Shown: positions 72-38,251 of the stretch, in pieces
Layout of the letters: each line of letters starts with the position of its first letter
Numbering within the stretch: position 1 is the stretch's first letter
IMG/VR virus record: IMGVR_UViG_3300012953_000001
Location: 32,001-96,000 of that record
DNA length: 64,000 nucleotides
Direction: 5' to 3' (one strand)
Source: a virus
Made by a program: the position numbers and the translations under genes
Notes under the pieces: model-generated
Seen by the model: the letters and a program-made list of their open reading frames with translations, nothing else
Databases searched by the model: none
What the model was told of the DNA's origin: nothing

Positions 72-111
72 ATGGCAAGAGACGTGCGTAAATCTGGCAT
101 AAGAATTGTGA
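72..111 (+). promoter_or_regulatory. putative phage promoter (GGnATAAGAA motif), copy 1
   Basis: GGCATAAGAATTGTG at 96-110, GCA starting 24 nt upstream of ATAAG; AGGAGG RBS at 113-118 and ATG at 125 follow. Confidence 0.6.
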
Positions 112-124
112 CAGGAGGTTACAC

Positions 125-361
125 ATGAGCATTCCAGACTCAACAATTGAGATGAAGGTAACGCCCATACCAAAGAAGCTGTTGGAGTTATTTAATGACA
201 ACCCAGTAGACCATAAGTTGAACGAGTGGTTAACCGTTCGTTGCTTTATTGGGCTACCTACAAAACCAGAAGCCTTGGCTTTCATCAAGAGACAAGTCAG
301 CAACAACACTAAGTGCCGAATCCCAGAAAAGGTCCGCAAGGCAGCGGGCATGGAAAAGTAA
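125..361 (+). CDS. small hypothetical protein (78 aa)
   Basis: AGGAGG RBS, own promoter-like motif and downstream hairpin; no recognisable family. Confidence 0.75.
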   Translation: MSIPDSTIEMKVTPIPKKLLELFNDNPVDHKLNEWLTVRCFIGLPTKPEALAFIKRQVSNNTKCRIPEKVRKAAGMEK

Positions 362-382
362 GAGGTCCTCCTCTTATTTTTC
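360..382 (+). terminator. weak intrinsic terminator
   Basis: AAGAGG-TCCT-CCTCTT hairpin followed by ATTTTTC, between convergent genes. Confidence 0.45.
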
Positions 383-402
383 TTAGCTATGGGACGCATG
401 AT

Positions 403-1710
403 CTACCTCCCCACCCAAGTCCCTGGTGCTTCCGCCCACGTCCGACGACTCTGGCCCAAAGTGGCCGGGTTCCTCGTCGGAGCAGTTTGAAACCCCCTCG
501 GAATCGTCGGCCCGAAGGGATTTACCGGGGGGCCCTTTGCTCCACCACGTATTACCCCAGGCACCGTGGCGGTAGTATTACTAGGACCTTTTAGCGCTCC
601 GACCGCAGCCCTGTTCCTTTGCTGAAGGAGTGTTGATGTCCTTGATTGGGCAAGCATCCTTTCATACTCAGGGGATACAGGTGGCCCAGAGCCCTTTGGT
701 TGCTGTCCGGTGTATCTTGCTTTGGGAACAGCTTTGCCTACACGAGGTGAGCCAGGGCCAAGTCCTCGCAGAGTGTTAACCACATCTGCTTTGCGTAGAC
801 CACCCTCGATAGGGATATCCGCAACAGAAGTGTTCGCCCCGGGAACTCTTGCTCGCCAGCCAGCAGCACGCTCTCTTAAGGACCGCTTTAAGGGACTTTT
901 TTCTCTGAGAGCTTTAGCAAGCTGCTCTTTCTTAACGGTTCTAGAGCTATCCGGCCCAGCCTTAGTAACCCTCTTGCCTGTACTTCCCTTGGGGGAGACA
1001 TAGAAATCAACAATCTTAGGTTTGCCTGAAGGGGTGACCATTATGTTTGTGGGATTGGATCTATCCAGCGCGGCTCCAGTTCTAGACGCTCTGCCAGACA
1101 TCGCGTCCTTGATAGACTTTCCGCGACGACCCATCATGTAGCTATCGCCCGCCATCCCTTGCGATTTCCATAGCTGTTTTAGATGCTTCTTTGTGGCCCT
1201 AGGTAAGCCCCCTGAGCGGACGACTGTATCGTACATGTCTCGCCCAGGCACATACTCCGAGTGGTAGTACCTTCCACCAGTAGGCGTCTTATGGAGCTTA
1301 TTGCTCACCACCTTAGCGAAGTCCTGGTTTCCTCTAGACATCATATGCCCACCAGATTTCGCAGGTGTTGCTCTGAGCCTTCGAAGAACATTAAACTTTT
1401 CAGCCGCTTGCTGCTTGCTGAATATTGCCCCAGAGGGGTCCATCATTTTTCGAACTAGGACTCTGCTAGGCGCATCTTTAGCACCAATAACCAAGTGTGC
1501 TGGACCCTCGCTACCAGAACCAAGGAACCTTAGCTGGGAGCCTTGCTTAGAGGTCTTCAGTGCGCCTTTAGAGACTAATCGTGCTGCTAAAGACTCAGCC
1601 TTAGCGATGTTCCCAGCATTAACCAACGCCCGAATAGCTTTGAGCGCGGCTGTAGCTGCGACCTTTTCAAGCTCGGAACGGTAGTTGTCTATTAACATCG
1701 CTTGGCTCAT
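403..1710 (-). CDS. protein-kinase-fold protein with basic disordered C-terminus, putative virion cargo
   Basis: LGSGSEGPAHLV (Gly loop), VLVRK (beta3 Lys), SEYVPGRD (hinge), NPTNIMVTPSGKPKIVDF (catalytic loop N and DFx); N-terminal LEKVAA; GGAGGGG RBS. Confidence 0.65.
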   Translation of the reverse strand: MSQAMLIDNYRSELEKVAATAALKAIRALVNAGNIAKAESLAARLVSKGALKTSKQGSQLRFLGSGSEGPAHLVIGAKDAPSRVLVRKMMDPSGAIFSKQQAAEKFNVLRRLRATPAKSGGHMMSRGNQDFAKVVSNKLHKTPTGGRYYHSEYVPGRDMYDTVVRSGGLPRATKKHLKQLWKSQGMAGDSYMMGRRGKSIKDAMSGRASRTGAALDRSNPTNIMVTPSGKPKIVDFYVSPKGSTGKRVTKAGPDSSRTVKKEQLAKALREKSPLKRSLRERAAGWRARVPGANTSVADIPIEGGLRKADVVNTLRGLGPGSPRVGKAVPKARYTGQQPKGSGPPVSPEYERMLAQSRTSTLLQQRNRAAVGALKGPSNTTATVPGVIRGGAKGPPVNPFGPTIPRGFQTAPTRNPATLGQSRRTWAEAPGTWVGR

Positions 1711-1971
1711 CTACCCCTCCGTTGGCTCGAAGTCATCGCATAAAAAATCCGCCCTAACCGGAGAATCCCCGTGCTTAGAGCACATACCATCACCCTTCCA
1801 ACTCCGCCCAGGCCTGTACCCAAAGCTTTGGCAACCGTCACACGCCGCATCACTTCTGTCCGACACTCGGAGATTGGGCGGGCGCGACTGCGCTAACTTC
1901 TGGAGTTGTTTTTCTAGAGAAGAATCTAGAAAAGAGTCCAGGGGATTTTTTGGGTCTTTTGGCGTATACAT
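1711..1971 (-). CDS. small Cys-rich protein, HiPIP-like Cys spacing
   Basis: CDGC...C...C pattern, LQKLAQ motif; stop abuts next start; probable start MYTPK at 1971 overlaps the SNF2 3' end. Confidence 0.6.
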   Translation of the reverse strand: MYTPKDPKNPLDSFLDSSLEKQLQKLAQSRPPNLRVSDRSDAACDGCQSFGYRPGRSWKGDGMCSKHGDSPVRADFLCDDFEPTEG

Positions 1972-3631
1972 AGCGAGTCTCACCCTTATCATCTACGTAC
2001 TTGTAGAGATGCTTCTTTGTTTTGTAAGCGCCGTAAAACTGTTCCTGCTGCTTGAACTTTCTACTGGCAACGTTGTCCATCCACTGGTCGGTAGTCTGTG
2101 GTGTTTTCTTACCGATTAACTTACCGAAAAATCCCGGACGCTTACTCATTGGTACGGTGCTTTGGTAACGTCTGACCTTCACAACGCGGTTCTCTAAGGA
2201 ACGATGTTCTTGCCCACCGAGTCTTCTAGCTCTTCCTTCTGCCTGAAGAACTCTTTGTGGGTTGAAGTGCCCATCTAAAGACATGAACGCTGTTGAGTTT
2301 TTTAGGTCTAACCCCTCGGCCCCAGCACCGCTAATAACGATGACTCGCTTCTTCCCAGACTTATACGCCTGTACTCCTTCTTGTCTAGAGACAGCGGTTA
2401 CTTTTCCACCACCTACCTCTGTGCCTTTACCAACAAAAATTGAATGCGGAATGCCACGTTCTTTAAGGCCTGCCGCTAAGACATCAACTCCGCCGCGTAC
2501 CAAGTTCGAATATAGGACAACCTTATTGTCCTTCCTTTCTACTAGGTGGGCTTCCGTATCGTTTAGTAGCTTGTTCACTTTAGGGGTTCTTCGGGCAGAC
2601 TCAGCTAACGACACATCACTTCTCCCCGAAGCCAATGAGTTCGCTAATTGCCGTGCCTGAGACACCTGAGAGAAAAGAAGCTTGGCATCCCTAACTGTTA
2701 TGTTCGGGTCTTTTTTGGTGATGTATTTTTTCACCGGCCCAAGCTTATCTAAGGAAAGTTGGTAGAGGCGATACTGCTCTTTGGACATTGGGACTTCTAC
2801 AGTCTCAGTGTCCTTTCTGGGCATCGTCTTTCCTTTGAGGTCTTTTGTTTGGACGTAGTCAATTTTGGTGCCGGTTCTGTCTGACAGGTCCCCGACATTT
2901 TTCATCCCAACAATTTTCTTTTTGGAGTCGTTAAACCCGCGAGTAAACCCGATTGTTTGGGTGTACCTGCGCTTGAACTGCTTTGGGGACAGGTCTCTAC
3001 GTCCCTCACTTAGTGTTAGTAAGGTAGCTATCTCTGATGGGTTGTTATTGATTAAGGACGCGGTCAGGCCCATGAAGTTTGTGGCCATTGATCGGGCAAT
3101 GGCAAGCGCCTTAAACGTCGTAGCAGACTCATTTCGAGTCTTATGGAATTCATCAGCGATAATAGTATCAGCACCGCTTCTTCTCATAAACCCGACAGGG
3201 TCTCTTCGAAACATTGAATAGCTGATGACTGTGTAGTCTTTATCGGTCTCTTCTCCGGGACGGATATACCCAGACTTTTTAGCTTTCTCTGAAGAAGACC
3301 CTACTGCCTGCCAAGAACTGCTTGTGAACTTTTCGATGCCATTTTTAGCAAAGTTGTCACGCAAGCCAGAGGGCACAATCACGATTGCTTTTTTAGCTTT
3401 ACCTTCGTGCTTGAGTTTCTCAAACCCGTAGATACTTGTGACTGTTTTACCAGTGCCCATCTCGTGGGCTAGGATCATCTTCCCCTTGTTCGCAAACAAG
3501 CGATCAATCGCTGCTGCTTGATGCGCGTAGGGCTTAAACCACTCTTTCATTGAAGGTATACCGGTGCCGTGCGCAGGCTTATCTCCTGCTGCTTCAGCCG
3601 CCTTCTTGATTAAGTAGTCGCCAAGAGTCAT
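1850..3631 (-). CDS. SNF2/SWI2-family ATPase
   Basis: HEMGTGKT Walker A, IIADEFH Walker B, GLTASLINNNPSEI motif III, GAGAEGLDL motif V, FNPQRVLQAEGRARRLG motif VI. Confidence 0.9.
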   Translation of the reverse strand: MTLGDYLIKKAAEAAGDKPAHGTGIPSMKEWFKPYAHQAAAIDRLFANKGKMILAHEMGTGKTVTSIYGFEKLKHEGKAKKAIVIVPSGLRDNFAKNGIEKFTSSSWQAVGSSSEKAKKSGYIRPGEETDKDYTVISYSMFRRDPVGFMRRSGADTIIADEFHKTRNESATTFKALAIARSMATNFMGLTASLINNNPSEIATLLTLSEGRRDLSPKQFKRRYTQTIGFTRGFNDSKKKIVGMKNVGDLSDRTGTKIDYVQTKDLKGKTMPRKDTETVEVPMSKEQYRLYQLSLDKLGPVKKYITKKDPNITVRDAKLLFSQVSQARQLANSLASGRSDVSLAESARRTPKVNKLLNDTEAHLVERKDNKVVLYSNLVRGGVDVLAAGLKERGIPHSIFVGKGTEVGGGKVTAVSRQEGVQAYKSGKKRVIVISGAGAEGLDLKNSTAFMSLDGHFNPQRVLQAEGRARRLGGQEHRSLENRVVKVRRYQSTVPMSKRPGFFGKLIGKKTPQTTDQWMDNVASRKFKQQEQFYGAYKTKKHLYKYVDDKGETRYVYAKRPKKSPGLFSRFFSRKTTPEVSAVAPAQSPSVGQK

Positions 3632-4476
3632 CCCTGCACGCCCCTGTGCTCCGCGTCAGACTGGATTTTTTGAGAAGCCTTGCTGGCCACTCTGGATAAA
3701 GCAGCGCCGCCACCAAAAGCTGCCAGTCCGAGCCCAAAGCTCTTTGCTGAGCTTCTTTTGAAGAGCTTGTTCAAGAGTTTTTTATCAATGCTTTTAGGGG
3801 ATTTTTTCAAAAGCTCTTTAAGCTTCTCAATGCTTATGGGTTTAGCTTCTTTCTTTGCCTGCTTGATAAGCAGTGCATGTGCGAGCTTTTCATACCAAGA
3901 GCTACTCTGAACCTCGGACCAAGCTTCGTTGACCTTCTTCATCTTCTCAGGGTCACCGCCCCGGTCTGGGTGATGCTTGAAGGCTGTTGCCCTAAAATGC
4001 TTCTTTGCCTCTTTTTTGGTCTTAACGTTCTTTGGAATATTAAGTGTTGATAGATTATCCTTAATAGTGCTTCGCCCTGGGCTCGTGTACTGCCTACGAC
4101 CACCACCGCCAGCATTTCGCCATGTCTGTTCCCAGCTTTCGTCAGCAGCCTTTCGAAATCGCTTCGTGAACCTTGCCATGTCTACACCAAGGCCAGCGTA
4201 ACCACCGAGGGACGACCCAACACCAGCGCCAGTCTCTCCCGCGATCCTCCGGTCTAGATCCATACGAGTTCGATACTTCTTTGAAAGAAGCATCTTCATC
4301 TTGTGGACCGCTTTCTTTCCTACTGGGAGCTTACGTAACTTCCTGTCGAAAAGTTTCTTACCAAGATGCTTGCCCCCGAAATGCCCCGCAGTGCTGCCTG
4401 TAATGGTGCCAGCGTAATCTTTGGCTAATTGGCCAAGTTCTTTCGCAGCAGATGCTTTCGCTACTTTTTCATACAT
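3628..4476 (-). CDS. J-domain (DnaJ-like) protein with Gly-rich helices
   Basis: KKHFRATAFKHHPDRGGDPEKMKKVNEAWSEV contains the HPD motif; flanked by EKVA/EKLA/IKQA motifs. Confidence 0.85.
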   Translation of the reverse strand: MYEKVAKASAAKELGQLAKDYAGTITGSTAGHFGGKHLGKKLFDRKLRKLPVGKKAVHKMKMLLSKKYRTRMDLDRRIAGETGAGVGSSLGGYAGLGVDMARFTKRFRKAADESWEQTWRNAGGGGRRQYTSPGRSTIKDNLSTLNIPKNVKTKKEAKKHFRATAFKHHPDRGGDPEKMKKVNEAWSEVQSSSWYEKLAHALLIKQAKKEAKPISIEKLKELLKKSPKSIDKKLLNKLFKRSSAKSFGLGLAAFGGGAALSRVASKASQKIQSDAEHRGVQG

Positions 4477-4481
4477 AGTTT

Positions 4482-6308
4482 TTACTCCCGCCCCATCTTA
4501 GAGAGGCCAGCTAAAGCGCCAGCACCCAGCATGGGGGCTGCGGCAGCTTGAGAAAAGGTTAGCCTTGCAGGGGAAACCATCTGATTAATTCGTTTTTGTG
4601 CCCCACCTCGCATGGCCCCTCGCCCTGCTTCAGCAAGCCTTCTAGCCGCACCACCGGTCATTCGGCCAAAATCCCTAGACGCTGGCGAAACAAAAACATC
4701 CATGGCGTGTTCGCCAAGTCTTTGCTTCATCGTCTTTTTCATGCCAGGAAGGAAGGCTTCTCGGATGCCTTGGGCAGCGGATTGTAGGCCCTTTTTCTGT
4801 ACGTACTTAGACCTGACTGCGAGTCCTTTGATACCGCCGATCAGACCATGCGACCCTAACGCAGCAAGGGGTAAAGCAGCTAATCCGCCCGTAGCAGTTG
4901 CAGCCGCACCCAGACCAACGCCGCCTCCAAGAAGGGCTAGATCTACACCAAGACCCTTCTTTTTAGCATCAGCTTGTAAGGCTTTGGGTAACCCTTGAAC
5001 TGCCTTACCGCCCTGAGACAACGCACCGCGACCTCCGTGCATTAACTGGTTGTACAGCCCGGACATCCCTGTTCGTTTAAAAATCTTCTTCTTGCCTACC
5101 GCCATGTCAATAGCATCAGGAAGCTGATTCCACACAGGAACGGGTTCCCCGCGCTTACTCCAGCGCATTGTGGGCGTAATGTACCTCTTGGCAGTGAGGA
5201 GGGCGGTCTCTCTGTACGCGGGTGGAACCCCACGGAGAAGTTTACCAATCTCGATACCCATCTGCCTGTTATATTTTAGCTCTGGGGCAAGCATTCCTAG
5301 GCCAAGACCTGCGCGGGTACCAACCCCCCGACGACCAGCTAGTCCTTCGCGAATCCCCATCGCCAATTGTTTGGTTTTAATTGTATTGGTGGCCCCCAGA
5401 ACCTTAGAGCCCCCGGGAACTTTGGACAGCCCTCTGCCCATCTTCCCGTACCCCATGGCCGCTTTGGTCGCGATGTGTCCCGCGCCAACCATTGGCAAAC
5501 CATGTGCAAGCATGTCCACAATAGATTTTCCAAGAAAAGCCGCGCCACCCAAACCGGCAGCAGCAGTAGCAGACCCCTCTTTTTTGAGAGCTTTCATCGC
5601 GCCATCAACAGCCGCAGACAAAACCAGACCGCCTAGAACTCCACCAGCGGCACCCCCACCTGCTGCTGGAAGAGCTTTCTTAAATACCTGTGTAGTCAAT
5701 TTGCCACCACTCATACCTTTTTGCAGAGCAACGCTTTCCGCTCCACGAGAGAGGGCACCAATTGCTGCGCCAGAAAGTGCGGGGGTTAGGTATTTCGCTA
5801 ACGCCCCGCCCCCCTTCTTACTCTTCTTCCTGCCCGAAGCAATGCTCAAGCCTAGAAGAATCGCTGAAGGGGTCTTATACGCAATGCGGGTCCCTCCGAT
5901 AATCGCGCCCCGTTTTGCGGATAAAGACTTCCCAAGGCCCCCAGACCTAGCGGATTTGTACCCCTCAATAAAACCCTTTTGTCCTTGATACGCAGCAGCA
6001 CTAGACCCCAGTAGGGCTAGTCCCGTTCTTTGTTTTGATTTGTCTTTTGATGTTACATAGTCGAGGCCTTTAAGAAATAGCGGAGCAGAGGCTACGCCGA
6101 CAGCCCCACCAATAGCCCTTCCGCTACCTCGACCTTTTAACCCACTGACGAGTAGGTCTTTGAGTTTGGTTTTGCTCCCTCGCAACTTTGCTTCAGTTGC
6201 GTGCTCAATGGAGCCTTTTGGAAGATCCCCTAGAACCGCCTTGAGCCCAAAGGCGGGAGCGGTCTTAAGCATGGTATCAAAATATTTTGGTTTGTTATCT
6301 TTCGCCAT
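4482..6308 (-). CDS. Gly/Ala/Lys-rich putative internal head or ejection protein with hydrophobic segments
   Basis: 608-aa ORF with several GxxxG-rich hydrophobic stretches, within the virion operon. Confidence 0.6.
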   Translation of the reverse strand: MAKDNKPKYFDTMLKTAPAFGLKAVLGDLPKGSIEHATEAKLRGSKTKLKDLLVSGLKGRGSGRAIGGAVGVASAPLFLKGLDYVTSKDKSKQRTGLALLGSSAAAYQGQKGFIEGYKSARSGGLGKSLSAKRGAIIGGTRIAYKTPSAILLGLSIASGRKKSKKGGGALAKYLTPALSGAAIGALSRGAESVALQKGMSGGKLTTQVFKKALPAAGGGAAGGVLGGLVLSAAVDGAMKALKKEGSATAAAGLGGAAFLGKSIVDMLAHGLPMVGAGHIATKAAMGYGKMGRGLSKVPGGSKVLGATNTIKTKQLAMGIREGLAGRRGVGTRAGLGLGMLAPELKYNRQMGIEIGKLLRGVPPAYRETALLTAKRYITPTMRWSKRGEPVPVWNQLPDAIDMAVGKKKIFKRTGMSGLYNQLMHGGRGALSQGGKAVQGLPKALQADAKKKGLGVDLALLGGGVGLGAAATATGGLAALPLAALGSHGLIGGIKGLAVRSKYVQKKGLQSAAQGIREAFLPGMKKTMKQRLGEHAMDVFVSPASRDFGRMTGGAARRLAEAGRGAMRGGAQKRINQMVSPARLTFSQAAAAPMLGAGALAGLSKMGRE

Positions 6309-6627
6309 TACTTTCGACCACCTTCGCTATCTTCCCGACCAATGTTTCAACCAGATAATCGTTAAGTGTATCTACGTTTTTTATCTCGCCGTACCAGCTA
6401 TCCACTTCGGGAACAAATTCTACAATAATATTCTCTGGGGGAAACCCTCCCAATGCGTTGGTAATACTATCGCCAAACCCTTTTGGGAATTCTGGCTCTC
6501 CCCAAAAATGAAATTTAACGCCACTATCAACCAGCAAGTACTCAGACCGGACACCAGGGATTGCGGTCTTTGCCTCAGTAAAAATGACCGGCTCAATTCT
6601 AAACCCATCTTTGTTATTACCAAACAT
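6295..6627 (-). CDS. hypothetical protein (110 aa, acidic)
   Basis: ORF packed in the operon, overlapping the next start. Confidence 0.7.
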   Translation of the reverse strand: MFGNNKDGFRIEPVIFTEAKTAIPGVRSEYLLVDSGVKFHFWGEPEFPKGFGDSITNALGGFPPENIIVEFVPEVDSWYGEIKNVDTLNDYLVETLVGKIAKVVESNGER

Positions 6628-6640
6628 ACTTACTGACTCC

Positions 6641-7420
6641 TCACTTCAAATCTTCGATGCTGCTAATATCCCGCTTGCCTAGCTTAATGGCAACAGTCTT
6701 TAGCTCATCAAGAACTTGGCGAACCTCGTCCCCTGTTTTATTCATTTCTTCCGTAGCTTTGAATATATTCTCTGCCCACATCTTCGCAGTCATAGCTGTA
6801 TCGCGGTTATTTGGTGAAGTTGTTGTTTCAAAAAACCGCATGGCAGATTCATGAAACACGCTTCTAATAACGTCTTTCTGCGATAACTCAACACGGTAGC
6901 CGAGTCGCCATAAGGCATACTCAAGCCCCTGCTTGTAGCATTGGCTAAGCACCTCACCGTTTGGGTGGGACTCCAGATACTCTAGCCACTCATTACTGGA
7001 TAATAAATCCCTGTTCCAAAAGTAATGGCGATAGAAATCTATTGTCTTTTTAGACAGTTTGACGCCACAAACTTCCACAACATACTTAGTAATGTCCTTC
7101 AGACTTGCATCACAGATAATGAGTGCTTCAAGCACGGGTCGAAGTTTTGTCTGCCCCAATATGTCCCTTGCGCGAATAGCGTCAGGCTGCTCAGACGCTA
7201 GAGACATTACTCGCTGTCGTCTAACCCAAACCCTTGTGGGGTTGTTGTTCAGATCAAGTCTTGCAGGCCTTGTTTCATCAAGCTGGGTAGAAAGCTCCCT
7301 TAAATACGCCTCAGTGGGCTCAGGCATTGCGTACATACGCGCAGCTTCCCTGATCTGTCCTGAGGAGAGACCAGAGAACAGCAGCATATACTTAAGCCAG
7401 TATTCATTGGGTTGCTTCAT
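6641..7420 (-). CDS. hypothetical protein with HTH-like segment (possibly terminase-small-subunit-like)
   Basis: 259-aa ORF; ASLKDITKYVVEVCGVKLSKKTIDFY resembles an HTH; function is inference only. Confidence 0.55.
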   Translation of the reverse strand: MKQPNEYWLKYMLLFSGLSSGQIREAARMYAMPEPTEAYLRELSTQLDETRPARLDLNNNPTRVWVRRQRVMSLASEQPDAIRARDILGQTKLRPVLEALIICDASLKDITKYVVEVCGVKLSKKTIDFYRHYFWNRDLLSSNEWLEYLESHPNGEVLSQCYKQGLEYALWRLGYRVELSQKDVIRSVFHESAMRFFETTTSPNNRDTAMTAKMWAENIFKATEEMNKTGDEVRQVLDELKTVAIKLGKRDISSIEDLK

Positions 7421-7428
7421 AAGTTTTA

Positions 7429-9420: not shown

Positions 9421-9432
9421 TATTTATACCCC

Positions 9433-21724: not shown

Positions 21725-21764
21725 TCCCACAAGGGCTTGAATGTTTTTGGTATAAGCAAATCGG
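21725..21764 (+). promoter_or_regulatory. putative phage promoter, copy 3 (replication operon)
   Basis: GGTATAAGCAA at 21749-21759, with CCA at the position where other copies have GCA; lies in the divergent intergenic gap. Confidence 0.45.
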
Positions 21765-22519: not shown

Positions 22520-22523
22520 CTAT

Positions 22524-24997: not shown

Positions 24998-25000
24998 CCA

Positions 25001-25453: not shown

Positions 25454-25457
25454 TCTT

Positions 25458-25757: not shown

Positions 25758-25775
25758 CGACAACATGGAGGTCAC

Positions 25776-27188: not shown

Positions 27189-27190
27189 CT

Positions 27191-28177: not shown

Positions 28178-29297
28178 AGTTGATTACGCAGAATTTCAAA
28201 AAATGCAGGCAGAGAAACGCCAGCGGCTTCTTAATAAAACTAAGCAAGCCAACCGCCCTAGCGGCGGAGGCGGAAACAAGAGTGGGGGCTATGAGGTTCC
28301 TGCTTGGAAGAAACGCCAAGAGTACTTCAAGCCTGGAACGGAGCCCACAAAGATCCGCCTTATCCCTAATGATAAAGGAGAACTGTGGTATCCCTACATG
28401 AGCAAGTGGGTTTCTACCGCGAAAGGAAAGAGAAATATTATCTCTAATGCCTGGAACGGTGACAGAGACATGCCGTGTGTCCTCTACTACTACGCAGTGG
28501 AGAATGAGAACGCGGACTACCTTGCCTCGGAGCAAATGGTCACAACCGTACTTGTCTTGGAAGATTACTATAAGATCCCCAAGACATCTGCCAAAGGTAA
28601 CGAGTACCACGTGTACGAGAAAAGCCTTGGCACAGATAAGCACGGTAGGACCTTAGACCCCGCAGAGTATCAGAGTTATGAGAAGTCATTTGGGAGGAAA
28701 CTGCATTGGTCTATGTGGCCAAGCCAGCAGCGGAATTTCATGAATACGCTTCTCAGTCTTGTAGACAAATGTGCAAACTGCAAAGACGGTGAAATCAGTG
28801 TGTACGCGTATGGTTGCCCCCAGTGTGGAGGAACCATCGCGGACCACCGAGAAGAGCCTATCGACCGAGAAAGCGAACAGGTTCTGAGAACACAGAGCGT
28901 TGTTTGCCCTCATTGCGAGGCAACAGTCGTTGCGGAGCAGCAGTATGAGTGTGTAAAGCAAGACGGTTATGGAGGCGATTGGGTTGAGGGCTGTGGTAGC
29001 CCTATCCGTATCTCGCTCGATGAACCTCTCGACCTTGTTATTCGAGCCGTACCTGCCGGTAGAAGTGTCGCTATCGAAGTCTTGGAGTTTGGCCCCGCGT
29101 CAGACGACGGAAAGTCTATTCCTGACTGGATGACCAAGCCTTTCGAGTTCGACTCTTTCTTCGGGAAGATGGACTTGGCTGATCAAGCGAACTCTATGGG
29201 TCTCCCGATGCCCTTCGAGGAATCGGCACAAGCTCTTGTAGATCAATTTTTTGAAGCACAGGCCGACGAGGAAGATGACGATAGCATCCCCTTCTAG
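28170..29297 (+). CDS. putative single-stranded DNA-binding protein with Zn-ribbons
   Basis: TKIRLIP start, three CxxC pairs, acidic tail DEEDDDSIPF; lies between primase and polymerase. Confidence 0.7.
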   Translation: MSKVDYAEFQKMQAEKRQRLLNKTKQANRPSGGGGNKSGGYEVPAWKKRQEYFKPGTEPTKIRLIPNDKGELWYPYMSKWVSTAKGKRNIISNAWNGDRDMPCVLYYYAVENENADYLASEQMVTTVLVLEDYYKIPKTSAKGNEYHVYEKSLGTDKHGRTLDPAEYQSYEKSFGRKLHWSMWPSQQRNFMNTLLSLVDKCANCKDGEISVYAYGCPQCGGTIADHREEPIDRESEQVLRTQSVVCPHCEATVVAEQQYECVKQDGYGGDWVEGCGSPIRISLDEPLDLVIRAVPAGRSVAIEVLEFGPASDDGKSIPDWMTKPFEFDSFFGKMDLADQANSMGLPMPFEESAQALVDQFFEAQADEEDDDSIPF

Positions 29298-29308
29298 GCG
29301 GTAATTAG

Positions 29309-29345
29309 GCGGGGGCTCGGGAGACCGGGTCCCCGCTTTCTTTTC
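29309..29345 (+). terminator. intrinsic terminator/attenuator between SSB and DNA polymerase
   Basis: 12-bp stem GCGGGGGCTCGG-GAGA-CCGGGTCCCCGC followed by TTTCTTTT. Confidence 0.8.
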
Positions 29346-29360
29346 CCAAGGAGGACTATC

Positions 29361-31250: not shown

Positions 31251-31393
31251 TGAACGAAATAATTCTTGAGATAGTGAGGGTGGTTCTAGCTGACGAGGCC
31301 CTTAGAGAGCAGGTTTTGTCTGAGTTGGATATTACCGATGAGGCGGCTTGGGCAATTAAAGAAGCCTACGAAAACCAAGACGAGACTTTATGA
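31250..31393 (+). CDS. small acidic protein (47 aa), not in ORF track
   Basis: MNEIILEIVRVVLADEALREQVLSELDITDEAAWAIKEAYENQDETL; start overlaps the pol stop, stop overlaps the next ATG. Confidence 0.65.
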   Translation: MNEIILEIVRVVLADEALREQVLSELDITDEAAWAIKEAYENQDETL

Positions 31394-31581
31394 AAACCCC
31401 GTGGAGCAAGCACGAGGATGAAATGGTGCGGAGGCTTTGGCCGACACACCACGTCACCCGAATAGCTAGAAAGCTGAAGCGTTCTGACGCTGCGGTAGCC
31501 CGCAGAGCTTATAGACTTCTTGGTACCAAGCGTATCCAGGAGATTAGACAACTAAATAAAAAGCTGCGGGAGAGTCGATGA
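31390..31581 (+). CDS. small Myb/GcrA-like HTH protein
   Basis: PWSKHEDEMVRRLW...TRIARKLKRSDAAVARRAYRL. Confidence 0.65.
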   Translation: MKTPWSKHEDEMVRRLWPTHHVTRIARKLKRSDAAVARRAYRLLGTKRIQEIRQLNKKLRESR

Positions 31582-31766
31582 TGGAGCGACATTACAGAAT
31601 AATTATTGAGGAGGAGCTACGGGCTAACAACCCAAAGCAAGCCCTCGTGTACGCCTTAGAAAGAATACAGACCGAAGAAACTGTCGCGTCTGTGACATGT
31701 GAATCTACTGGAGAAGTTTTCCATTACGAGATTCAAACCTTACAACGATTAGATAACGAAAATTGA
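31578..31766 (+). CDS. hypothetical protein (62 aa)
   Basis: coupled ORF, GGGAG upstream. Confidence 0.65.
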   Translation: MMERHYRIIIEEELRANNPKQALVYALERIQTEETVASVTCESTGEVFHYEIQTLQRLDNEN

Positions 31767-31776
31767 GGAGGTCCTT

Positions 31777-32010
31777 ATGGGCTGGTGGTCTATTAATAAT
31801 ACGGTGTTGGACGGAGGTATCCACGAAGGTGGTACCGAAATGTTCAATGGAGATGGTCCCGCAGATATCATGGGTGTAGCGCTAGACTCAGTAGTTAAAG
31901 AGTACGAGTCTACCTGGGGACGAAAGCCTTTTAAGGAAGAGCTTCGTGCGGCGTTTAATTTTGTCGCCAATAGCCTAGAGCTAGAGAGCGTAAAAGAGAG
32001 CGTAAAATGA
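31777..32010 (+). CDS. hypothetical protein (77 aa)
   Basis: GAGGAGG RBS. Confidence 0.75.
   Translation: MGWWSINNTVLDGGIHEGGTEMFNGDGPADIMGVALDSVVKEYESTWGRKPFKEELRAAFNFVANSLELESVKESVK
31984..32007 (+). repeat. 12-bp tandem duplication
   Basis: GAGAGCGTAAAA x2, encoding ESVKESVK and ending in the next ATG. Confidence 0.9.
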
Positions 32011-32798
32011 CCGATAGAGACGCTAAGCTTCCAGAGGATTACTGGGAGCCTTTGTGGCCGGGTAAGCCTATCAACAATGAGTACAAGCATGTTGATGGGA
32101 ATGCTACAGCGGATACTTGGTGCAACGAAAAGTGCCAAGTTTACGTGTACGATTACCCCCCGCTAGAGGGGTGGCCACCTATTATTGAGATGTCCCTAAA
32201 GTTGAATTCACGAGAGCCGTGGAGAGACTGGCGGGATTTTTACCGGATTAAATCAGAGCTATGTGGGACAAAATGCTGGGCTATAGAGGTGTACCCCGCG
32301 CAGGATGCTTTAGTGGACTCCTGTAACCAGTACCACATGTTCGTTTTCCCTCCAGACGTAGCGTGGCCTATCAGGCTTCACCAAGCAAAAATCACCAGTT
32401 ACGGTGAGGAATTCCAAGAGATGCACCGACTTGCAGCTAAGGAGTTTGGTGAAGAAGAGTGGCAGGCCATGTCCAGTAGGACCAAACAAAGGGATTGGCA
32501 TGAGCACCATAAATGCGATGAGCTTCCTGAGATTGGCCCGGTCTGGAGAAAGCGTGGGTACTTCATTAACGATGAAGGCGAAGTTGAGAAGGGGGAGGCT
32601 CCGGTAGAGGAGCCCCCTCAAGATGTTGGACAGATGCTCATGCAAGCTGTCTTGGGCACAATGACGGGCACCTCTTTTGATCCGGACTATAAAGAAGTAG
32701 CGCCAAAAACGACGCAACGGAAAAAAGGGAACAAGAGCAGGAAGAAGATGAGCAAGAAAAGCCGACAACAAAACAGAAAACGACGAACCAAGAAGTAG
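32007..32798 (+). CDS. DUF7694-like protein with highly basic C-terminus
   Basis: WRDFYRIKSELCG...AIEVYPAQDALVDSCNQYHMFV; tail KKGNKSRKKMSKKSRQQNRKRRTKK. Confidence 0.6.
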   Translation: MTDRDAKLPEDYWEPLWPGKPINNEYKHVDGNATADTWCNEKCQVYVYDYPPLEGWPPIIEMSLKLNSREPWRDWRDFYRIKSELCGTKCWAIEVYPAQDALVDSCNQYHMFVFPPDVAWPIRLHQAKITSYGEEFQEMHRLAAKEFGEEEWQAMSSRTKQRDWHEHHKCDELPEIGPVWRKRGYFINDEGEVEKGEAPVEEPPQDVGQMLMQAVLGTMTGTSFDPDYKEVAPKTTQRKKGNKSRKKMSKKSRQQNRKRRTKK

Positions 32799-32807
32799 GA
32801 GGGTAGA

Positions 32808-32876
32808 ATGCTTGGGTTTACAATTGGTACTGTCTTTGGCGCAGCTGTAATTATTTACTTACGCGACTATCGGTAA
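32808..32876 (+). CDS. 22-aa single-pass membrane peptide, not in ORF track
   Basis: MLGFTIGTVFGAAVIIYLRDYR preceded by AGGAGGG; fills the intergenic gap. Confidence 0.55.
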   Translation: MLGFTIGTVFGAAVIIYLRDYR

Positions 32877-32880
32877 TAAC

Positions 32881-33132
32881 ATGTGGTTCTTTTATGTGGT
32901 TAGATGCTCTGACAACTCTCTCTACGCAGGAATAACAACCTGTGTAGAGAGACGTATAAAAGACCACAACACAACTGCCAGAGGTGCAAAGTACACAAGA
33001 AGCCGAAGACCTGTCTCCTTGGCTATGACTAAAATATTTGGTAATAAATCAGAGGCCCTTAAATATGAGATCGGCTTCAAAAGACTGTCTAAAAAAGACA
33101 AGGAAGATATATGCTCAAAGGAGGGTATGTGA
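32881..33132 (+). CDS. standalone GIY-YIG nuclease (UPF0213/SLX1-like)
   Basis: FYVVRCSDNSLYAGIT..VERRIKDHN...GAKYTRSRRPV...EALKYE. Confidence 0.9.
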   Translation: MWFFYVVRCSDNSLYAGITTCVERRIKDHNTTARGAKYTRSRRPVSLAMTKIFGNKSEALKYEIGFKRLSKKDKEDICSKEGM

Positions 33133-33414
33133 ATGAAAACTAAATACGCAATACCAACAGCGTTAGTAGATGATTTAATTCTTTCGGGAATGGCTACTGA
33201 CGAAGATGAGGCTATAGAAAAAGTAGCCTCCGGTTCAGGGCTAGTAGCTCTCAGAAACCACAAACAGCGACAGCTTGAAACGCTTATGATTGAGAAGGAC
33301 CATGGTATTACTCACCGTGGAGCCTCAGAAGGAAGCAAGATCTCCGAACTAGAAAGCGAGATTGAAGAGATAAATAAGTTGATTGAGTTTCGAGACGTAT
33401 CGGTGGAGGACTAG
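33133..33414 (+). CDS. hypothetical coiled-coil protein (93 aa)
   Basis: ORF abutting both neighbours. Confidence 0.7.
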   Translation: MKTKYAIPTALVDDLILSGMATDEDEAIEKVASGSGLVALRNHKQRQLETLMIEKDHGITHRGASEGSKISELESEIEEINKLIEFRDVSVED

Positions 33415-34470
33415 ATGGCAAAGGATGATTTATCAAAGCTAATAAAAGGCGTTCAAAAGAGCTTGGGTGGGGCGGCAAAGATCTCCCATCTAGCCGAAGT
33501 GGATGCTCCGTTTCTGACTAGGCTTCCCACAGGGATTTTAAGTCTAGATCTAGCGTTAAAGGGCGGCTTCCCCGCAGGCTCTATGCACCAATTGTTTGGT
33601 CCTGACGGCGCAGGCAAAGACTTCCTTTCAAATCTAGTTATTGCCCAGCTACAGAGAGACTATGGAGAAAAGGCAAACGTTGCCTGGATGAGCTTCGGCT
33701 ATAAGCCCGATGTCCCATTCATGGAAATGTGCGGAATTGATGTCGATCTAGGTAACCTAATGTTTATTGATATTGGGAACGAGGACGCGTTAGACCAGCC
33801 TGCTGAGTCTCTTTTGACTGCAATGCTAGATCTTATCAGGTCTAATAAATTCCAGCTTATGGTTATCAATGAGCTTGGGTCGGGAGAGACCAAAGACAAT
33901 GTTAAGAAGGGACTCCATGAAGACGCTAAGATTGCTACTTGGGCAAGCTTGATGTCTACATTCTGCCAGAAGTTCTACAGTGCTATGCGCACTCCTGGCG
34001 AAGATGGTGAGCCTAACAAGACATGTGTAATAATGATTAATCCTGTTCGCGCAAACATTGATGCACGTTCTGCGAAGTACTTCCCATACTCTCAAGGTGG
34101 GGGTTACGCGCTGAAGCATGCTAAAGCTGTAGACCTTCACCTCCGCGCTGGAAGCACTATCAAAACTGGTGGTGAGAAAGTGGGTAAGGAGATTAAGTGG
34201 AAGATCAGCAAAGGCAAGCACGGAATCTCAGAGGGTGCTGAGGGCGGCTACACATTCATGTTTAACCGAGGAGTTGACCTTATAGAGGACCTCGCGAATA
34301 CAGCTAAATCTCTTGGGGTAATCAGAAGCTCTGGCCCTGTGTACTATGTCTTGGACTACGATGACAAAGTAAAGGGCGGAATCAGCGGCGTTGTAGACAT
34401 GCTGAAGAAGTCACCAACTCTCTGCGAGGAAGTCCGACAAGCAGTCTTGGAAAGGACTGCTGATGTCTAG
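33415..34470 (+). CDS. recA: RecA/UvsX-like recombinase with atypical Walker motifs
   Basis: LPTGILSLDLALKGGFPAG, LFGPDGAGKD, GGYALKHAKAVDL, GVDLIEDL. Confidence 0.85.
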   Translation: MAKDDLSKLIKGVQKSLGGAAKISHLAEVDAPFLTRLPTGILSLDLALKGGFPAGSMHQLFGPDGAGKDFLSNLVIAQLQRDYGEKANVAWMSFGYKPDVPFMEMCGIDVDLGNLMFIDIGNEDALDQPAESLLTAMLDLIRSNKFQLMVINELGSGETKDNVKKGLHEDAKIATWASLMSTFCQKFYSAMRTPGEDGEPNKTCVIMINPVRANIDARSAKYFPYSQGGGYALKHAKAVDLHLRAGSTIKTGGEKVGKEIKWKISKGKHGISEGAEGGYTFMFNRGVDLIEDLANTAKSLGVIRSSGPVYYVLDYDDKVKGGISGVVDMLKKSPTLCEEVRQAVLERTADV

Positions 34471-35224
34471 AATCTACGTTAAGATAGGACCCAAGTCCAT
34501 AAGGCACATAGTTGACGGTTTACCCTTCTTACCAGGGCTGTGTATGCATCGAATGCCTACATCTGGAAAGATAAGTGAACTTTACAACATTACGCATAAT
34601 AATAGTGGGCTTGCGGTCCTATCTTCCGTAGCGGAGAAAAACCTAGAACTGGCGAGAATGGTTCTGGGTCGATTGTTGTGGGACAGGTCCTCCGCCGCAA
34701 TCTTTGAAGATGAGCGGTACCACAAATTAATGGAGGAGGCTGACGCTGTGCTGACAAATCATGAGAGAAGTAAGAAACAAGAGAAACGAATCGCAGAAGA
34801 TGTTGGCGGAAAACGCCAGCCAGCGTCCGGTTCTCGCTGGGGGTGTAAGCGAGATATCGTCTCGCCACGCCTGCTGATAGAAGCAAAAACAACTAGGTCC
34901 GCTAAGCAAGCGGTATCAATAAAAGATCTACACTTCCTAACCAAGCAAGCTTACCAACAGGGCAAAATACCCGCGTACGTTATTGAGCTAGGCTCCAAGG
35001 AGGAAGTTGTCGTTATTCATTCGCAAGACATCGCTGAAGACGTTTTTTCGGAGTTCAACGAACAGAAAGAGATAAATTGTCAGACCAAGAAGTCATTCTC
35101 TATAACATCGGGACTTGTTGACTGGTTAGGGTCTGACAACTGCGCTTTGATAGTAACGTCTAGTGGGACTTACGCCCTGCTGAACTACTACTTCTTTTTG
35201 GAAGTAGCCAAGAGGGGATTATGA
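34463..35224 (+). CDS. PD-(D/E)xK nuclease, Holliday-junction-resolvase-like, with N-terminal extension
   Basis: QEKRIAEDVGGKRQPASGS...KRDIV...LLIEAKTT. Confidence 0.75.
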   Translation: MSRIYVKIGPKSIRHIVDGLPFLPGLCMHRMPTSGKISELYNITHNNSGLAVLSSVAEKNLELARMVLGRLLWDRSSAAIFEDERYHKLMEEADAVLTNHERSKKQEKRIAEDVGGKRQPASGSRWGCKRDIVSPRLLIEAKTTRSAKQAVSIKDLHFLTKQAYQQGKIPAYVIELGSKEEVVVIHSQDIAEDVFSEFNEQKEINCQTKKSFSITSGLVDWLGSDNCALIVTSSGTYALLNYYFFLEVAKRGL

Positions 35225-35937
35225 CAAAAGAAAGTAAAATGCCTGTGCGATGTCTCAGAGGAGACAAGCTACGGCATCACAACAACTTCAATACGAAGAA
35301 TGAGTATGACGCCCTCCTAGAGCAAGACAACAAAAAGCCTTGGACTAGGAAGGTCGGCCATCATCACCCATCTTCAATTGGGAATGTAAACAATGCTGCT
35401 TACGGGTGTCGTAGAGCCCTGTATTATGACCGAATAGGGGTGCCGCCTAAGGCGAGAACGACTGCGGATAAGCAAGTCATTTTTGACATGGGCCACTCAC
35501 TGCATGACATGATTCAAGACCGCTTCAAGGAGATTGAGGGCTTTGAATCAGAAGTGAATTGTGAATTCCCAGACCTAAATATTTACGGTCATTGTGATGG
35601 GGTGTTTCGCGAACAAGACTGGGTTCTCGAAATCAAAACGGTAGGCGAGAGTGTTTATCGGACATTGGTTCAGCCCAAGATAGAACACATCTGGCAGGTG
35701 CACTGCTATATGTTCTGCTTGGACATACCGAGAACACAGCTTTTCTACATAAACCGAGCCAGCGGCGCTACGAGACTTTTCAGAATCGAGTTTTCAAACA
35801 AGATCTGGGAAGAGATCGCTGCTGTCATTGGTGAGATTGAAGACCACGTCGAACGGCAAGAGCCACCCCCCAAAGAAGTGAGTAAATGGAAATGTGGGGG
35901 TTGTAAATTTTATCACGAATGTAAACCAGAATTTTAA
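35221..35937 (+). CDS. Cas4-like PD-(D/E)xK exonuclease with Fe-S Cys motif
   Basis: HPSS...CRRALYY, GHSLH, GHCDG, LEIKT, QVHCYM, CGGCKFYHEC. Confidence 0.85.
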   Translation: MTKESKMPVRCLRGDKLRHHNNFNTKNEYDALLEQDNKKPWTRKVGHHHPSSIGNVNNAAYGCRRALYYDRIGVPPKARTTADKQVIFDMGHSLHDMIQDRFKEIEGFESEVNCEFPDLNIYGHCDGVFREQDWVLEIKTVGESVYRTLVQPKIEHIWQVHCYMFCLDIPRTQLFYINRASGATRLFRIEFSNKIWEEIAAVIGEIEDHVERQEPPPKEVSKWKCGGCKFYHECKPEF

Positions 35938-35953
35938 TCGGGAGGCACCGAGT

Positions 35954-36541
35954 ATGACCCAGAAGAAGAAAGATCTTTTTCTGGAGCTACGGGGCACGCT
36001 GGAGGAGGACCTAAAAAGGACGGGCTTTGACCCAGACACAAATCCTCCAGGGAAAGAGCCTAAGATACGGGGCTCCGTAAGTGACCTAGACGCTCCAAAC
36101 TTAAAGAAGTTATATGACCAGTTCTTAGCATTCTACGACTACATAACCGACCAAATCGCTACAGATATTGGTTTCGTTATGGTCAGCAAAGCAAGACTAG
36201 AACAAGTTCATGCACAAGCACTGCTGAGGGCTCAGGGAGACTCATCCCTAAAGAATGCGGAACAGCGAAAAGCCGCAGCCACTACAGATGGAACGTATGT
36301 AGGGGCGCAAAGAGACTACACGTACTTCAAGGCTAAACTGGCGATGCAGCAAGAGCGCAGAGACAAATATAAACGCGCCATGGACAGGATCGGCAGGGAG
36401 CTTTGGTACCGAACGCAGGACGATAGTCAAGAGTTCTACACACCGGCATCAATCGCTAGACCTGTAGCGGACAACCACGCAGCGGAGGTTCAGAAGTTTA
36501 AGTCCGGTTATAAGCGGAGGGCGGTGAAGGATGGAACGTAA
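35954..36541 (+). CDS. coiled-coil protein, possibly UvsY-like recombination mediator
   Basis: start reassigned to MTQKKK (GGAGG RBS); long amphipathic helices; position in the recombination cluster. Confidence 0.55.
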   Translation: MTQKKKDLFLELRGTLEEDLKRTGFDPDTNPPGKEPKIRGSVSDLDAPNLKKLYDQFLAFYDYITDQIATDIGFVMVSKARLEQVHAQALLRAQGDSSLKNAEQRKAAATTDGTYVGAQRDYTYFKAKLAMQQERRDKYKRAMDRIGRELWYRTQDDSQEFYTPASIARPVADNHAAEVQKFKSGYKRRAVKDGT

Positions 36542-36950
36542 GAAAGTATTCGAGGCGGAGCTTACAATACTCCCCCCATCAGTAAATAGAATGTATGTGT
36601 ACACGACACGAGGCCCAAGACCTTCTTCGGATATGAAAAAGTTCAAGGCTAAGGCGTCTACACAGTTAGCAAAACAAATCCCCTTTGGGGCTAAGCCATT
36701 ATCCCAAAATACCCCTTATGCCCTTCGACTGGAGTTTCACCTACCGGCGTTGCTGAACAAGGGGTGGCCGAAGAAAGCTAAGACCAAATACAAACGAAAA
36801 GATGTATCAAACCTGATCAAAGTCGTTGAGGATTTACTTTCTTGGTGTTTGGGAATAGACGACTCATGCTTCTTAGAGGTATCGGTTCAAAAGATGGATG
36901 GCTTAGTTTCAGAGTTTGTTGGAGTGAAAATAGAAGTACATGAAATCTGA
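36531..36950 (+). CDS. rusA: RusA-like Holliday junction resolvase
   Basis: LPPSVNRMY...KDVSNLIKVVEDLL...GIDDS. Confidence 0.85.
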   Translation: MERKKVFEAELTILPPSVNRMYVYTTRGPRPSSDMKKFKAKASTQLAKQIPFGAKPLSQNTPYALRLEFHLPALLNKGWPKKAKTKYKRKDVSNLIKVVEDLLSWCLGIDDSCFLEVSVQKMDGLVSEFVGVKIEVHEI

Positions 36951-37236
36951 GAACATACCGTTAAAGCCCCTGGAGCTACTTCATGTAGCGTGGGAGCAGC
37001 ATGGCCAAAGAATAGCCATGCACGAGAACCCTGGGCAAATTCAGGAGCTTTTGTCGTATAAGGATGACGAAGTCCAAAGCAGCCCATTTAACCCCATGCG
37101 TGATGAAATCATGCTATATATAAAGGATAGAAGAAATATGCTAAGTTTATCGTGTGATGGCAACTGTTATGGCCACACAGATGGCGTTGTGGCGTTTTGC
37201 CACCAACAACTTATGGAGGACCAGAATGGCCGCTAA
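36940..37236 (+). CDS. hypothetical protein (98 aa)
   Basis: coupled ORF; C-x3-C-x2-H...C-H pattern. Confidence 0.7.
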   Translation: MKSENIPLKPLELLHVAWEQHGQRIAMHENPGQIQELLSYKDDEVQSSPFNPMRDEIMLYIKDRRNMLSLSCDGNCYGHTDGVVAFCHQQLMEDQNGR

Positions 37237-38134
37237 AGCTACTAAAAAGATGTTTGATAACCTAGATCGTGCTGAAGTCAGAAAGCTGGCGATTGTGGGC
37301 ATGAAGCTGGCACCAGCAAAAGCCTACACTATGGACTTTAAGACATTAGTCTCGTGGGTCCATGCGCGAGCTACTGAAGTGCCCGCTGACGAAGTAAACG
37401 GTGATCGCGACAGGGACCCTAGGCCCTTTGTCGAGGTTGACTTGGATGCAGTTGGTAACGAAGCCTTTAGAGACGGCGTTATGAGCTACATCGCACAGCT
37501 ACAGGATTTTGTCCGAGGCAATCGCGACAGTGCGCCAGCATGGCCACCTAGTGATGCAGGTGACGCGATTAAGGCTAAAGAAGTGACTCCTGAGGAGCCT
37601 AAGGCCGAGGTTGCTCCTAAGCGAAAGCGTGGCCGTCCGCGTAAAATGGATACGGTATCCAAGGAAACGCCTATTACTAAGAAGCCTGTCCCTGAAGCGA
37701 AGGCTGCTGCTCCTAAGAAAGAAGTTGCACCAATCGCTAAGACAAAGCTCAAGAAGACAAAGCTTTCCACAAAGAAAGCGGAGCCTGCGCCAGAAGCTGT
37801 TGATACCACCGTCAAAGAAGCCACCACTACGCCAAGCGTTGATGTGGTTGGGTTGATGGCTGCTATTGAGAGCCTGTCTGCGCGTGTTGAAGAGCTTACG
37901 ACCACCGTTAATAATATTAGTGCCTACACTAATGGTTTAGCGGAAGGCGTAAAAGATGGCTTCACTACAGTTAGTGATCAAGTGGCCGCTGTTCGAACAG
38001 AGCAGACCGCTGCTAATAACCTACTTGGTAATGCTTTATTGTTCCTCATGAACTCTGTGGTTTTTGAGGAGGGCGAAGAAAAAGTAGACCTTGCAGGTGT
38101 CCCAGAGCCAAATAGCTATTTGGACCTGGATTAG
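37226..38134 (+). CDS. AT-hook / histone-like DNA-binding protein with coiled-coil C-terminus
   Basis: start reassigned to MAAKAT (GGAGGA RBS); KRKRGRPRK AT-hook; Lys/Ala/Pro-rich linker. Confidence 0.7.
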   Translation: MAAKATKKMFDNLDRAEVRKLAIVGMKLAPAKAYTMDFKTLVSWVHARATEVPADEVNGDRDRDPRPFVEVDLDAVGNEAFRDGVMSYIAQLQDFVRGNRDSAPAWPPSDAGDAIKAKEVTPEEPKAEVAPKRKRGRPRKMDTVSKETPITKKPVPEAKAAAPKKEVAPIAKTKLKKTKLSTKKAEPAPEAVDTTVKEATTTPSVDVVGLMAAIESLSARVEELTTTVNNISAYTNGLAEGVKDGFTTVSDQVAAVRTEQTAANNLLGNALLFLMNSVVFEEGEEKVDLAGVPEPNSYLDLD

Positions 38135-38158
38135 TCCATACCCTCCTTTGGACTTGAT

Positions 38159-38201
38159 GAGCCCCTCGCGTATCTTCGGATATGTGGGGGGCTCTTTTTT
38201 T
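38159..38201 (+). terminator. intrinsic terminator of the replication operon
   Basis: 16-bp stem with a cTTCGg loop followed by T7. Confidence 0.88.
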
Positions 38202-38211
38202 AGCTACAAAA

Positions 38212-38251
38212 CGTGCAAAAACGACCCCCTTTTTAGGGATAAGAATAGTGA
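38212..38251 (+). promoter_or_regulatory. putative phage promoter, copy 4
   Basis: CGTGCAAAAACG at 38212 and GGGATAAGAATAGTG at 38236-38250; same 27-nt spacing as copy 2. Confidence 0.62.

Follow-up and report, generated by a model that had tools for sequence, protein, structure and literature searches.

Phages that carry a multisubunit RNA polymerase have been described in reviews as lacking any sigma homologue detectable by sequence, and those that carry a sigma factor as lacking a polymerase (PMC7824862, PMC13282480). Salmonella phage Arash has both: its beta subunit (gp206), beta' subunit (gp216) and sigma factor (gp10) are abundant in the virion, and the paper that reports them does not contain the word 'promoter' (PMC10585845). 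We have analysed a 64-kb window of phage DNA (bases 32,001-96,000 of IMGVR_UViG_3300012953_000001, a virus record that is complete at 178,429 bp and has terminal repeats of 123 bp), in which a two-block motif built around ATAAG stands ahead of the plus-strand units. The searchable literature holds no description of this motif and, for a phage with both a sigma factor and a polymerase, only the Arash isolation paper; near-identical DNA was not found among GenBank phage records. The reading that we consider likely is that the motif is a two-block sigma-70-type promoter of the non-structural genes, most likely read by the phage's own sigma factor and probably on the phage's own polymerase.

The motif was originally noticed in four copies on the plus strand of the window, GGCATAAGAATTGTG at position 96, GGTATAAGAACTATG at 17606, GGTATAAGCAAATCG at 21749 and GGGATAAGAATAGTG at 38236. 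All four strings are present as reported, and each lies in non-coding sequence upstream of the first gene of a plus-strand unit (Table 1). In copies 1, 2 and 4 a GCA starts 24 nt ahead of ATAAG (at 75, 17585 and 38215), and copies 2 and 4 also have CGTGCAnAnACG in common; the CCA described for copy 3 exists, as CCACAAG, but is shifted by about one base. The window alone showed no enrichment of the core GGNATAAG (12 copies against 7.9 +/- 3.3 in shuffled sequence) and the whole 178-kb genome was therefore needed for this test. There, the core is enriched, with 38 copies compared to 10 for the reversed control. Twenty of the 38 fall in the 9% of the genome that is intergenic (p = 8e-12), and an unbiased ranking of gapped 8-mers by intergenic enrichment places GGNATAAG at the top. 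The intergenic copies are co-oriented with the next gene in 18 of 20 cases, at a median distance of 47 nt, and most copies are found outside the window, among small genes at 131-168 kb. Genes were called with a simple home-made scorer of codon usage in open reading frames (ORFs), which returned 187 genes and 91% coding sequence. Counts were taken from fixed patterns because iterative refinement of a position matrix drifted into coding false positives.

Alignment of the sites yields the consensus GCAAAA(T), about 14 nt, t-GGnATAAGA, N4, TG. Numbered from the predicted start, this would put GCAAAA at -35 to -30 and, after a spacer rich in T, G-14 G-13 n A-11 T A A G-7 A-6; four unconstrained positions would then lead to T-1 G+1. 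The upstream, -35-like block carries 3.24 bits of information, well above the maximum of 1.66 reached in 300 random sets, and the distance from GCA to ATAAG is 23-25 nt at 14 of 19 intergenic sites (24 nt at eight, 23 nt at five and 25 nt at one). The bipartite arrangement that had been proposed is thus borne out, but its spacing is not exact and varies by one base either way. A G occupies -7 in every copy, and ATAA is invariant in this genome, in Arash, in Vibrio phage D181 and at 16 orthologous sites. At genome positions 162600-162670, which lie outside the window (about 130600-130670 in its coordinates), two GGTATAAG copies face away from each other 31 nt apart and share a single 5-bp inverted repeat (ACGCA-caaaac-TGCGT) as their -35 region; they may form a divergent promoter pair.

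The same element recurs in distant relatives. One strand of Arash (OQ632216) has 36 copies of GGNATAAG, where controls give 7-8, and of 43 motif copies 26 are intergenic, every one of them co-oriented with its gene. The Arash consensus reads GGTATAAG-N5-TGTAA; its upstream block, (C)AATAA, is less pronounced but equally far from the core. In D181 (OZ196140) the exact string is not enriched, but an unbiased word search recovers GTTATAAG (14 of 18 intergenic), and GKTATAAG is intergenic in 17 of 26 copies, all 17 co-oriented. We also retrieved 26 loci from uncultivated relatives with 40-85% polymerase identity, and scanned the five long genomes among them; these hold 6-23 copies of GGNATAAGN5YG, nearly all on one strand, where controls hold 0-3. 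One of them, G005, has TGCAAAA, a spacer and TTTT-n-GGnATAAGAACTATG at 19 sites, a clearer -35 block than that of the present genome. Individual sites are conserved too. Copy 2 lies in a gap between divergent genes, one of them that of the polymerase; its orthologue was compared across 16 relatives and has an invariant ATAAGA and a nearly invariant GC in the -35 block amid variable flanks; the orthologue of copy 3, CACAAG followed by GGTATAAG, is retained in relatives down to 60% polymerase identity; and the 15-mer of copy 4 is found again in two relatives (G001 and G002). Judged by these sequences, it is very likely that this phage and distant relatives such as Arash have one promoter code in common. 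The words that rank second and third for intergenic enrichment in Arash, TATATAA and TTGTAACC, were rejected as promoters since they belong to a repeat of about 200 bp. This repeat occurs five times, near 26.7, 66.4, 100.2, 138.5 and 173.3 kb (intervals of about 34-40 kb), and contains TATATAA three times together with a tandem TTGTAACC/GGTTACAA; possible roles are those of a mobile element, an origin or a signal for packaging.

Is the motif a promoter at all? It might instead mark a site of RNA processing, serve as operator for some regulator of the phage or be left over from a dispersed repeat, and some copies do overlap small inverted repeats and T-runs that resemble terminators. Only about 17 scattered positions are conserved, however, and the flanks of the copies are unrelated, so that a repeat family can be dismissed. 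The motif precedes the first gene of each unit and does not lie inside it, in many cases with a terminator immediately before it; its two blocks are at sigma-type spacing and are co-oriented with genes in three genomes, and known RNA families in Rfam have no match in the window. Explanations of this non-promoter kind are therefore highly improbable in our view. The inverted repeat CCGTG-CAGA-CACGG, which the original prediction had made part of the element, is real in copy 2 but is no general feature: repeats centred on the -35 block are present at 8 of 24 sites in this genome, 4 of 25 in Arash and 8 of 21 in D181, compared to a background of about 25% (p of at least 0.09), and a hairpin was rejected as a promoter component. 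The copy 2 repeat is unchanged in the closest relatives, with no compensatory change, and is broken in two others (L024 and L032). Covariation at the candidate site at 24491 was likewise discarded as hairpin evidence, since the site is coding: its Pro (CCN) and Gly (GGN) codons give complementary runs, and GGAATAAG encodes W-N-K. In many copies of this lineage, those of G005 for example, the -35 block does sit in a short stem with a T-rich spacer behind it, and this may reflect an overlap of terminator and promoter.

The phage encodes candidates for both parts of an enzyme that could read such a promoter. The 2,090-aa ORF next to copy 2 is a single polypeptide with beta and then beta' domains in order, and its gene is present in a single copy. 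A second multisubunit polymerase was not found, and a search for the T7/N4-type polymerase family, run with no positive control, likewise gave no match. The nearest cultured relatives of the fused polypeptide, at about 30% identity, are the polymerases of Vibrio phages D69, D148 and D181 and of Arash. The clade shows fused (this phage), two-gene (Arash gp206 and gp216) and three-piece (D181) forms of the polymerase; in D181 the locus (2959-10941) comprises three or more ORFs, two of which are separated by a homing endonuclease gene. The sigma factor is encoded about 15 kb beyond the window, within a large structural block, and was found solely through its homology to Arash gp10; a six-frame search of the genome with the Pfam models for sigma regions 2 and 4 gave no match. 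The protein itself has weak matches to Sigma70_r3 and Sigma70_r2 (Pfam) and to the SigB/F/G and FliA/WhiG models (NCBIfam). A profile built from six members of the family matches the solved SigA (2e-14), RpoS (1e-10) and FliA (3e-5), in an alignment that spans region 2 through region 4.2. From these comparisons the phage factor is a sigma-70-family protein with regions 2 to 4.

What we see of the motif is what would be expected of a sigma-type promoter. Its conserved positions fall into two blocks, one from -35 to -30 and the other from -14 to -6, and the spacer between them is fixed to within one base; the -10 block is A/T-rich with an invariant A at -11; copies are placed upstream of, and co-oriented with, the genes at the heads of units in three genomes; and the phage has a candidate cognate sigma factor, with both region 2 and region 4. 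The original prediction assigned the element to the phage RNA polymerase. Its tie to the phage transcription machinery stands, because the motif is conserved across a clade that shares the polymerase and the sigma factor but infects different hosts (Salmonella and Vibrio); the polymerase alone is not the probable reader, and recognition most likely occurs through the phage sigma factor.

Phage sigma factors such as T4 gp55 and SPO1 gp28 work by appropriation of the host enzyme. The main rival to our reading is that the same holds here, with the phage sigma factor reading the motif on the host core polymerase and the fused phage polymerase serving other promoters. Redirection of the host core enzyme is indeed what phage sigma factors usually do (PMC7824862, PMC13282480). 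An alpha-like subunit was not found in the phage, and the structural genes, being free of the motif, need another route of initiation; both points would suit a division of labour of this kind. Against it, the sigma factor and the phage polymerase occur together in every genome tested. All seven carry both, the sigma homologue being present in four of the four uncultivated relatives that were tested for it (G001-G004), and among 50,697 phage records the sigma factor is restricted to four isolates that also have this polymerase, so that it was never met in these records without the polymerase. In addition, Arash virions contain all three proteins (beta, beta' and sigma), and the motif persists in phages whose hosts have different core enzymes. 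We think it unlikely that the host core is the partner.

Recognition by a host holoenzyme had also been raised, either through the housekeeping sigma factor with an unusual -10 element or through the flagellar sigma-28. The sequence nATAAG equals TATAAT at five of six positions, and the geometry of the motif matches that of sigma-28 promoters. Yet every copy has G in place of the near-invariant T at -7 and none has TTGACA, which makes the housekeeping factor unlikely, and scans with the sigma-70 pattern revealed no enrichment (15 matches against 21.7 expected, and 19 against 14.9), none of the matches being at the sites. Dependence on the flagellar factor would tie infection to the motility state of the host. 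Moreover, the same motif is found in phages of Salmonella and Vibrio and in uncultivated relatives, with the sigma factor carried by all seven genomes tested. Use of a host holoenzyme is, on balance, improbable.

Several points nevertheless weigh against the preferred reading, in which the phage sigma factor acts on the phage polymerase. The link between sigma factor and promoter is drawn from co-occurrence and geometry, and the sequence would fit the phage sigma factor on a host core as well as on the phage core. The sigma factor matches curated sigma models weakly, below their cut-offs, and no alpha-like subunit or domain was found in the phage genome. The intergenic fractions are approximate, since they depend on the gene calls of the home-made scorer. 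Finally, our search for a promoter class ahead of the structural genes on the minus strand found none, which leaves the temporal model incomplete: among 16 structural-gene upstream regions word enrichment was weak (GTTGCCA, TAATATA) and without consistent spacing, and a second class was rejected on this basis.

The original prediction placed purine start sites near 111, 17621, 21764 and 38251. The more fitting start is one base earlier, at the G of the conserved TG (110, 17620, 21763 and 38250), which is the likely +1 as far as the sequence pattern can tell. Multisubunit polymerases usually prefer a pyrimidine-purine step at -1/+1, and TG at these positions therefore fits a start there. A potential RNA hairpin begins exactly at the predicted +1 G at 8 of 24 sites compared to 16% in controls (p = 0.026). 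We treat the TG and the hairpins anchored at +1 as hints at the start site and not as proof of it. Stem-loops whose first paired base is the predicted +1 G are seen in the window at 17619-17645 and 38252-38275 and elsewhere in the genome at 131168, 132965, 138229, 162667 and 167856. For copy 2, comparison by eye shows that the stem changes in sequence among relatives with its pairing retained (GGGC/GCCC, GAGGC/GCCTC, GAGCAG/CTGCTC and GGAGAG/CTCTCC).

The simplest model is that a holoenzyme is injected with the DNA and starts the motif-headed units without a host sigma factor. In such a scheme the motif would drive the non-structural genes, that is, the replication module and many small genes; its reader would most likely be the 292-aa sigma factor of the phage, working on the fused beta-beta' polymerase as its probable catalytic partner. 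The minus-strand blocks that hold the polymerase and sigma genes have no copy of the motif, and the Arash homologues of both proteins are plentiful in the virion; for this reason the enzyme is probably delivered along with the DNA. The timing of its action, like the binding protein and the start site, we infer from these patterns.

It is about an even call whether this extends to a whole clade of phages of about 145-190 kb (enteric, marine and many of them uncultivated), each with a full initiation apparatus of bacterial type packed in its virion: a beta-beta' core, encoded by one fused gene or by two or three, and a canonical group-3-like sigma factor that reads a sigma-28-like code, GCAAAA-N14-GGnATAAG-N5-TG. 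If it does, non-structural genes in these phages would be expressed independently of the host sigma factor, and perhaps of the host polymerase, and the rule of the reviews that a phage has either a polymerase without a sigma factor or a sigma factor without a polymerase would be broken. The motif gives the polymerase-sigma pair a concrete promoter code that can be tested, and because Arash grows on a standard laboratory strain of Salmonella, start-site mapping and run-off assays are directly feasible. The consensus also permits annotation of operons and non-coding RNA units in many uncultivated relatives. A compact orthogonal promoter and sigma pair might be had from this system, and the differences within the clade (GG versus GT at -14/-13, and GCAAAA versus CAATAA at -35) provide a natural series for the study of drift in sigma specificity.

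Table 1. Positions of the predicted promoters, transcription units and transcription genes (window coordinates unless stated otherwise).
Feature	Position	Strand	Details
Promoter copy 1 (predicted)	75-110	+	GCAAGA 75-80; GGCATAAG 96-103; TG 109-110; predicted start G110
Promoter copy 2 (predicted)	17585-17620	+	GCAGAC 17585-17590; GGTATAAG 17606-17613; TG 17619-17620
Promoter copy 3 (predicted)	21727-21763	+	CCACAAG 21727-21733; GGTATAAG 21749-21756; CG 21762-21763
Promoter copy 4 (predicted)	38215-38250	+	GCAAAAA 38215-38221; GGGATAAG 38236-38243; TG 38249-38250
Candidate internal promoter	24471-24505	+	GCAAAAT 24471-24477; GGAATAAG 24491-24498; TG 24504-24505
Candidate internal promoter	37035-37069	+	GCAAATT 37035-37041; CGTATAAG 37055-37062; CG 37068-37069
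Gene predicted to be driven by copy 1, 78 aa	125-361	+	No Pfam match
Two-way terminator hairpin with T-run, after the 78-aa gene	359-376		
Small unit downstream of copy 2	17675-18028	+	Likely GTG start at 17675 after AAAGGAG
72-aa ORF in the small unit behind copy 2	17810-18028	+	
Replication and recombination module, 16 kb	21804-38134	+	Pfam matches
Single-gene unit	38328-38654	+	97-aa gene 38328-38621; terminator 38639-38654
Fused beta-beta' RNA polymerase, 2,090 aa	11300-17572	minus	Pfam Rpb2_6 6.6e-57; Rpb1_2 1.1e-26
Structural/virion gene blocks, including the polymerase gene	1-17572, 18025-21730, 38681-64000	minus	Motif-free
Sigma-70-family factor, 292 aa	genome 111243-112121	minus	Homologue of Arash gp10, E = 5e-25

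Outside the plus-strand units the window is occupied by minus-strand genes, very large ones of structural type together with that of the polymerase. Terminators bracket the plus-strand units, lying ahead of copy 4 and at the ends of units 1, 3 and 4. Copy 1 is intergenic, 14 nt from the ATG at 125. Copy 2 is back to back with the start of the polymerase gene; an ATG at 17618 overlaps its conserved TG, and the true start of the downstream gene is probably elsewhere. Behind the AAAGGAG ribosome-binding site, a two-codon mini-ORF (ATG TTG TGA, 17670-17678, plus strand) overlaps the likely GTG start. Copy 3 heads the replication module, which encodes an Xre-type helix-turn-helix protein, three helicases (two of SF2 and one DnaB-like), a family A DNA polymerase and a RecA-like protein, and which has strong terminators at 29307-29338 and 38159-38194, the latter preceding copy 4. 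The Xre-type protein is the product of the second gene after copy 3 (22076-22519, plus strand; HTH_31, 3.3e-07); it is a candidate early regulator and might control the switch to the structural genes. A minus-strand GGCATAAG at 38644 was dismissed as a chance match, since it is the loop of the terminator hairpin GGGGGC-TTAT-GCCCCC.

Two further candidate promoters lie inside the replication module. That at 24491 is within the 3' end of an ORF (23665-24576), 60 nt upstream of a gene at 24566; relatives conserve it as well, but the Q-N and W-N-K codons there confound the comparison. An ORF stretch at 23930-24576 (plus strand) that overlaps the end of the helicase gene was missed by the gene caller; it ends in a conserved Q-N-x-G-G-x-W-N-K stretch, which coincides with this candidate promoter, and the ORF ending at 24576 has a GRGS...VVVLLDRSS segment that by eye we take to resemble the signature of uracil-DNA glycosylase family 4. 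The candidate at 37055 is upstream of a gene for a 326-aa protein at 37154 and is the weakest copy, with its first G replaced by C.

Among described promoters the closest in layout are those of sigma-28 (FliA/WhiG, group 3), which in the Pseudomonas structure read (-36)TCTAAAG(-30) and (-15)GCCGATAA(-8), with a GC pair as extended -10 element and A-11 flipped out (PMC12784957). The two-block geometry is the same, the two promoters agree in AAA (-33 to -31) and in ATAA (-11 to -8), both have a G/C-rich extended -10 element just upstream, and neither requires T at -7. The best named relatives of the phage sigma factor, FliA/WhiG and SigB/F/G, also belong to group 3. The phage motif differs in having GG-n for GCCG, a conserved G at -7, GCAAAA for TCTAAAG and an added conserved TG at the start, and its predicted factor is phage-encoded, falls far below the family cut-offs and would serve replication and early genes. 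The motif would work like the sigma-28 class but is not a member of it, as it does not match the consensus TAAA-N15-GCCGATAA. It also departs from the housekeeping host promoter (TTGACA-N17-TATAAT) in its G at -7 and in having GCAAAA as the -35 block.

In T4 late transcription (gp55, TATAAATA) and with SPO1 gp28 and gp33/34, a phage factor of the sigma family likewise sets a non-host promoter code. These factors act on the host core enzyme and serve genes of the middle or late classes; a -35 block is missing from the late promoters of T4. By contrast, the phage studied here also encodes catalytic subunits, and its sigma and polymerase genes are themselves without the motif. Phages phiKZ and AR9 resemble it in that they encode a relative of cellular beta and beta', one form of which is packaged in the virion and serves the early genes, and the phiKZ late consensus, (-3)TATG(+1) (PMC7618050), resembles the CTATG that is frequent at the start here. 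Their enzymes, however, consist of four to five very divergent polypeptides with no sequence-detectable sigma homologue and use short single-block promoters, whereas here there is one fused polypeptide of bacterial type, a recognisable sigma-70-family factor and a two-block promoter, which sets this system outside that class. Nor is a DNA hairpin part of every copy, as it is of every N4-type promoter. The nearest systems overall are those of Arash and of Vibrio phages D69, D148 and D181. In Arash and D181 the polymerase is split, into two genes and at least three pieces respectively, and is fused here; their -35 block is (C)AATAA and not GCAAAA, and D181 has T at -13. What all of them have in common with this phage is the family of the sigma factor, that of the polymerase (about 30% identity) and the promoter core, GKTATAAG-N5-TG.

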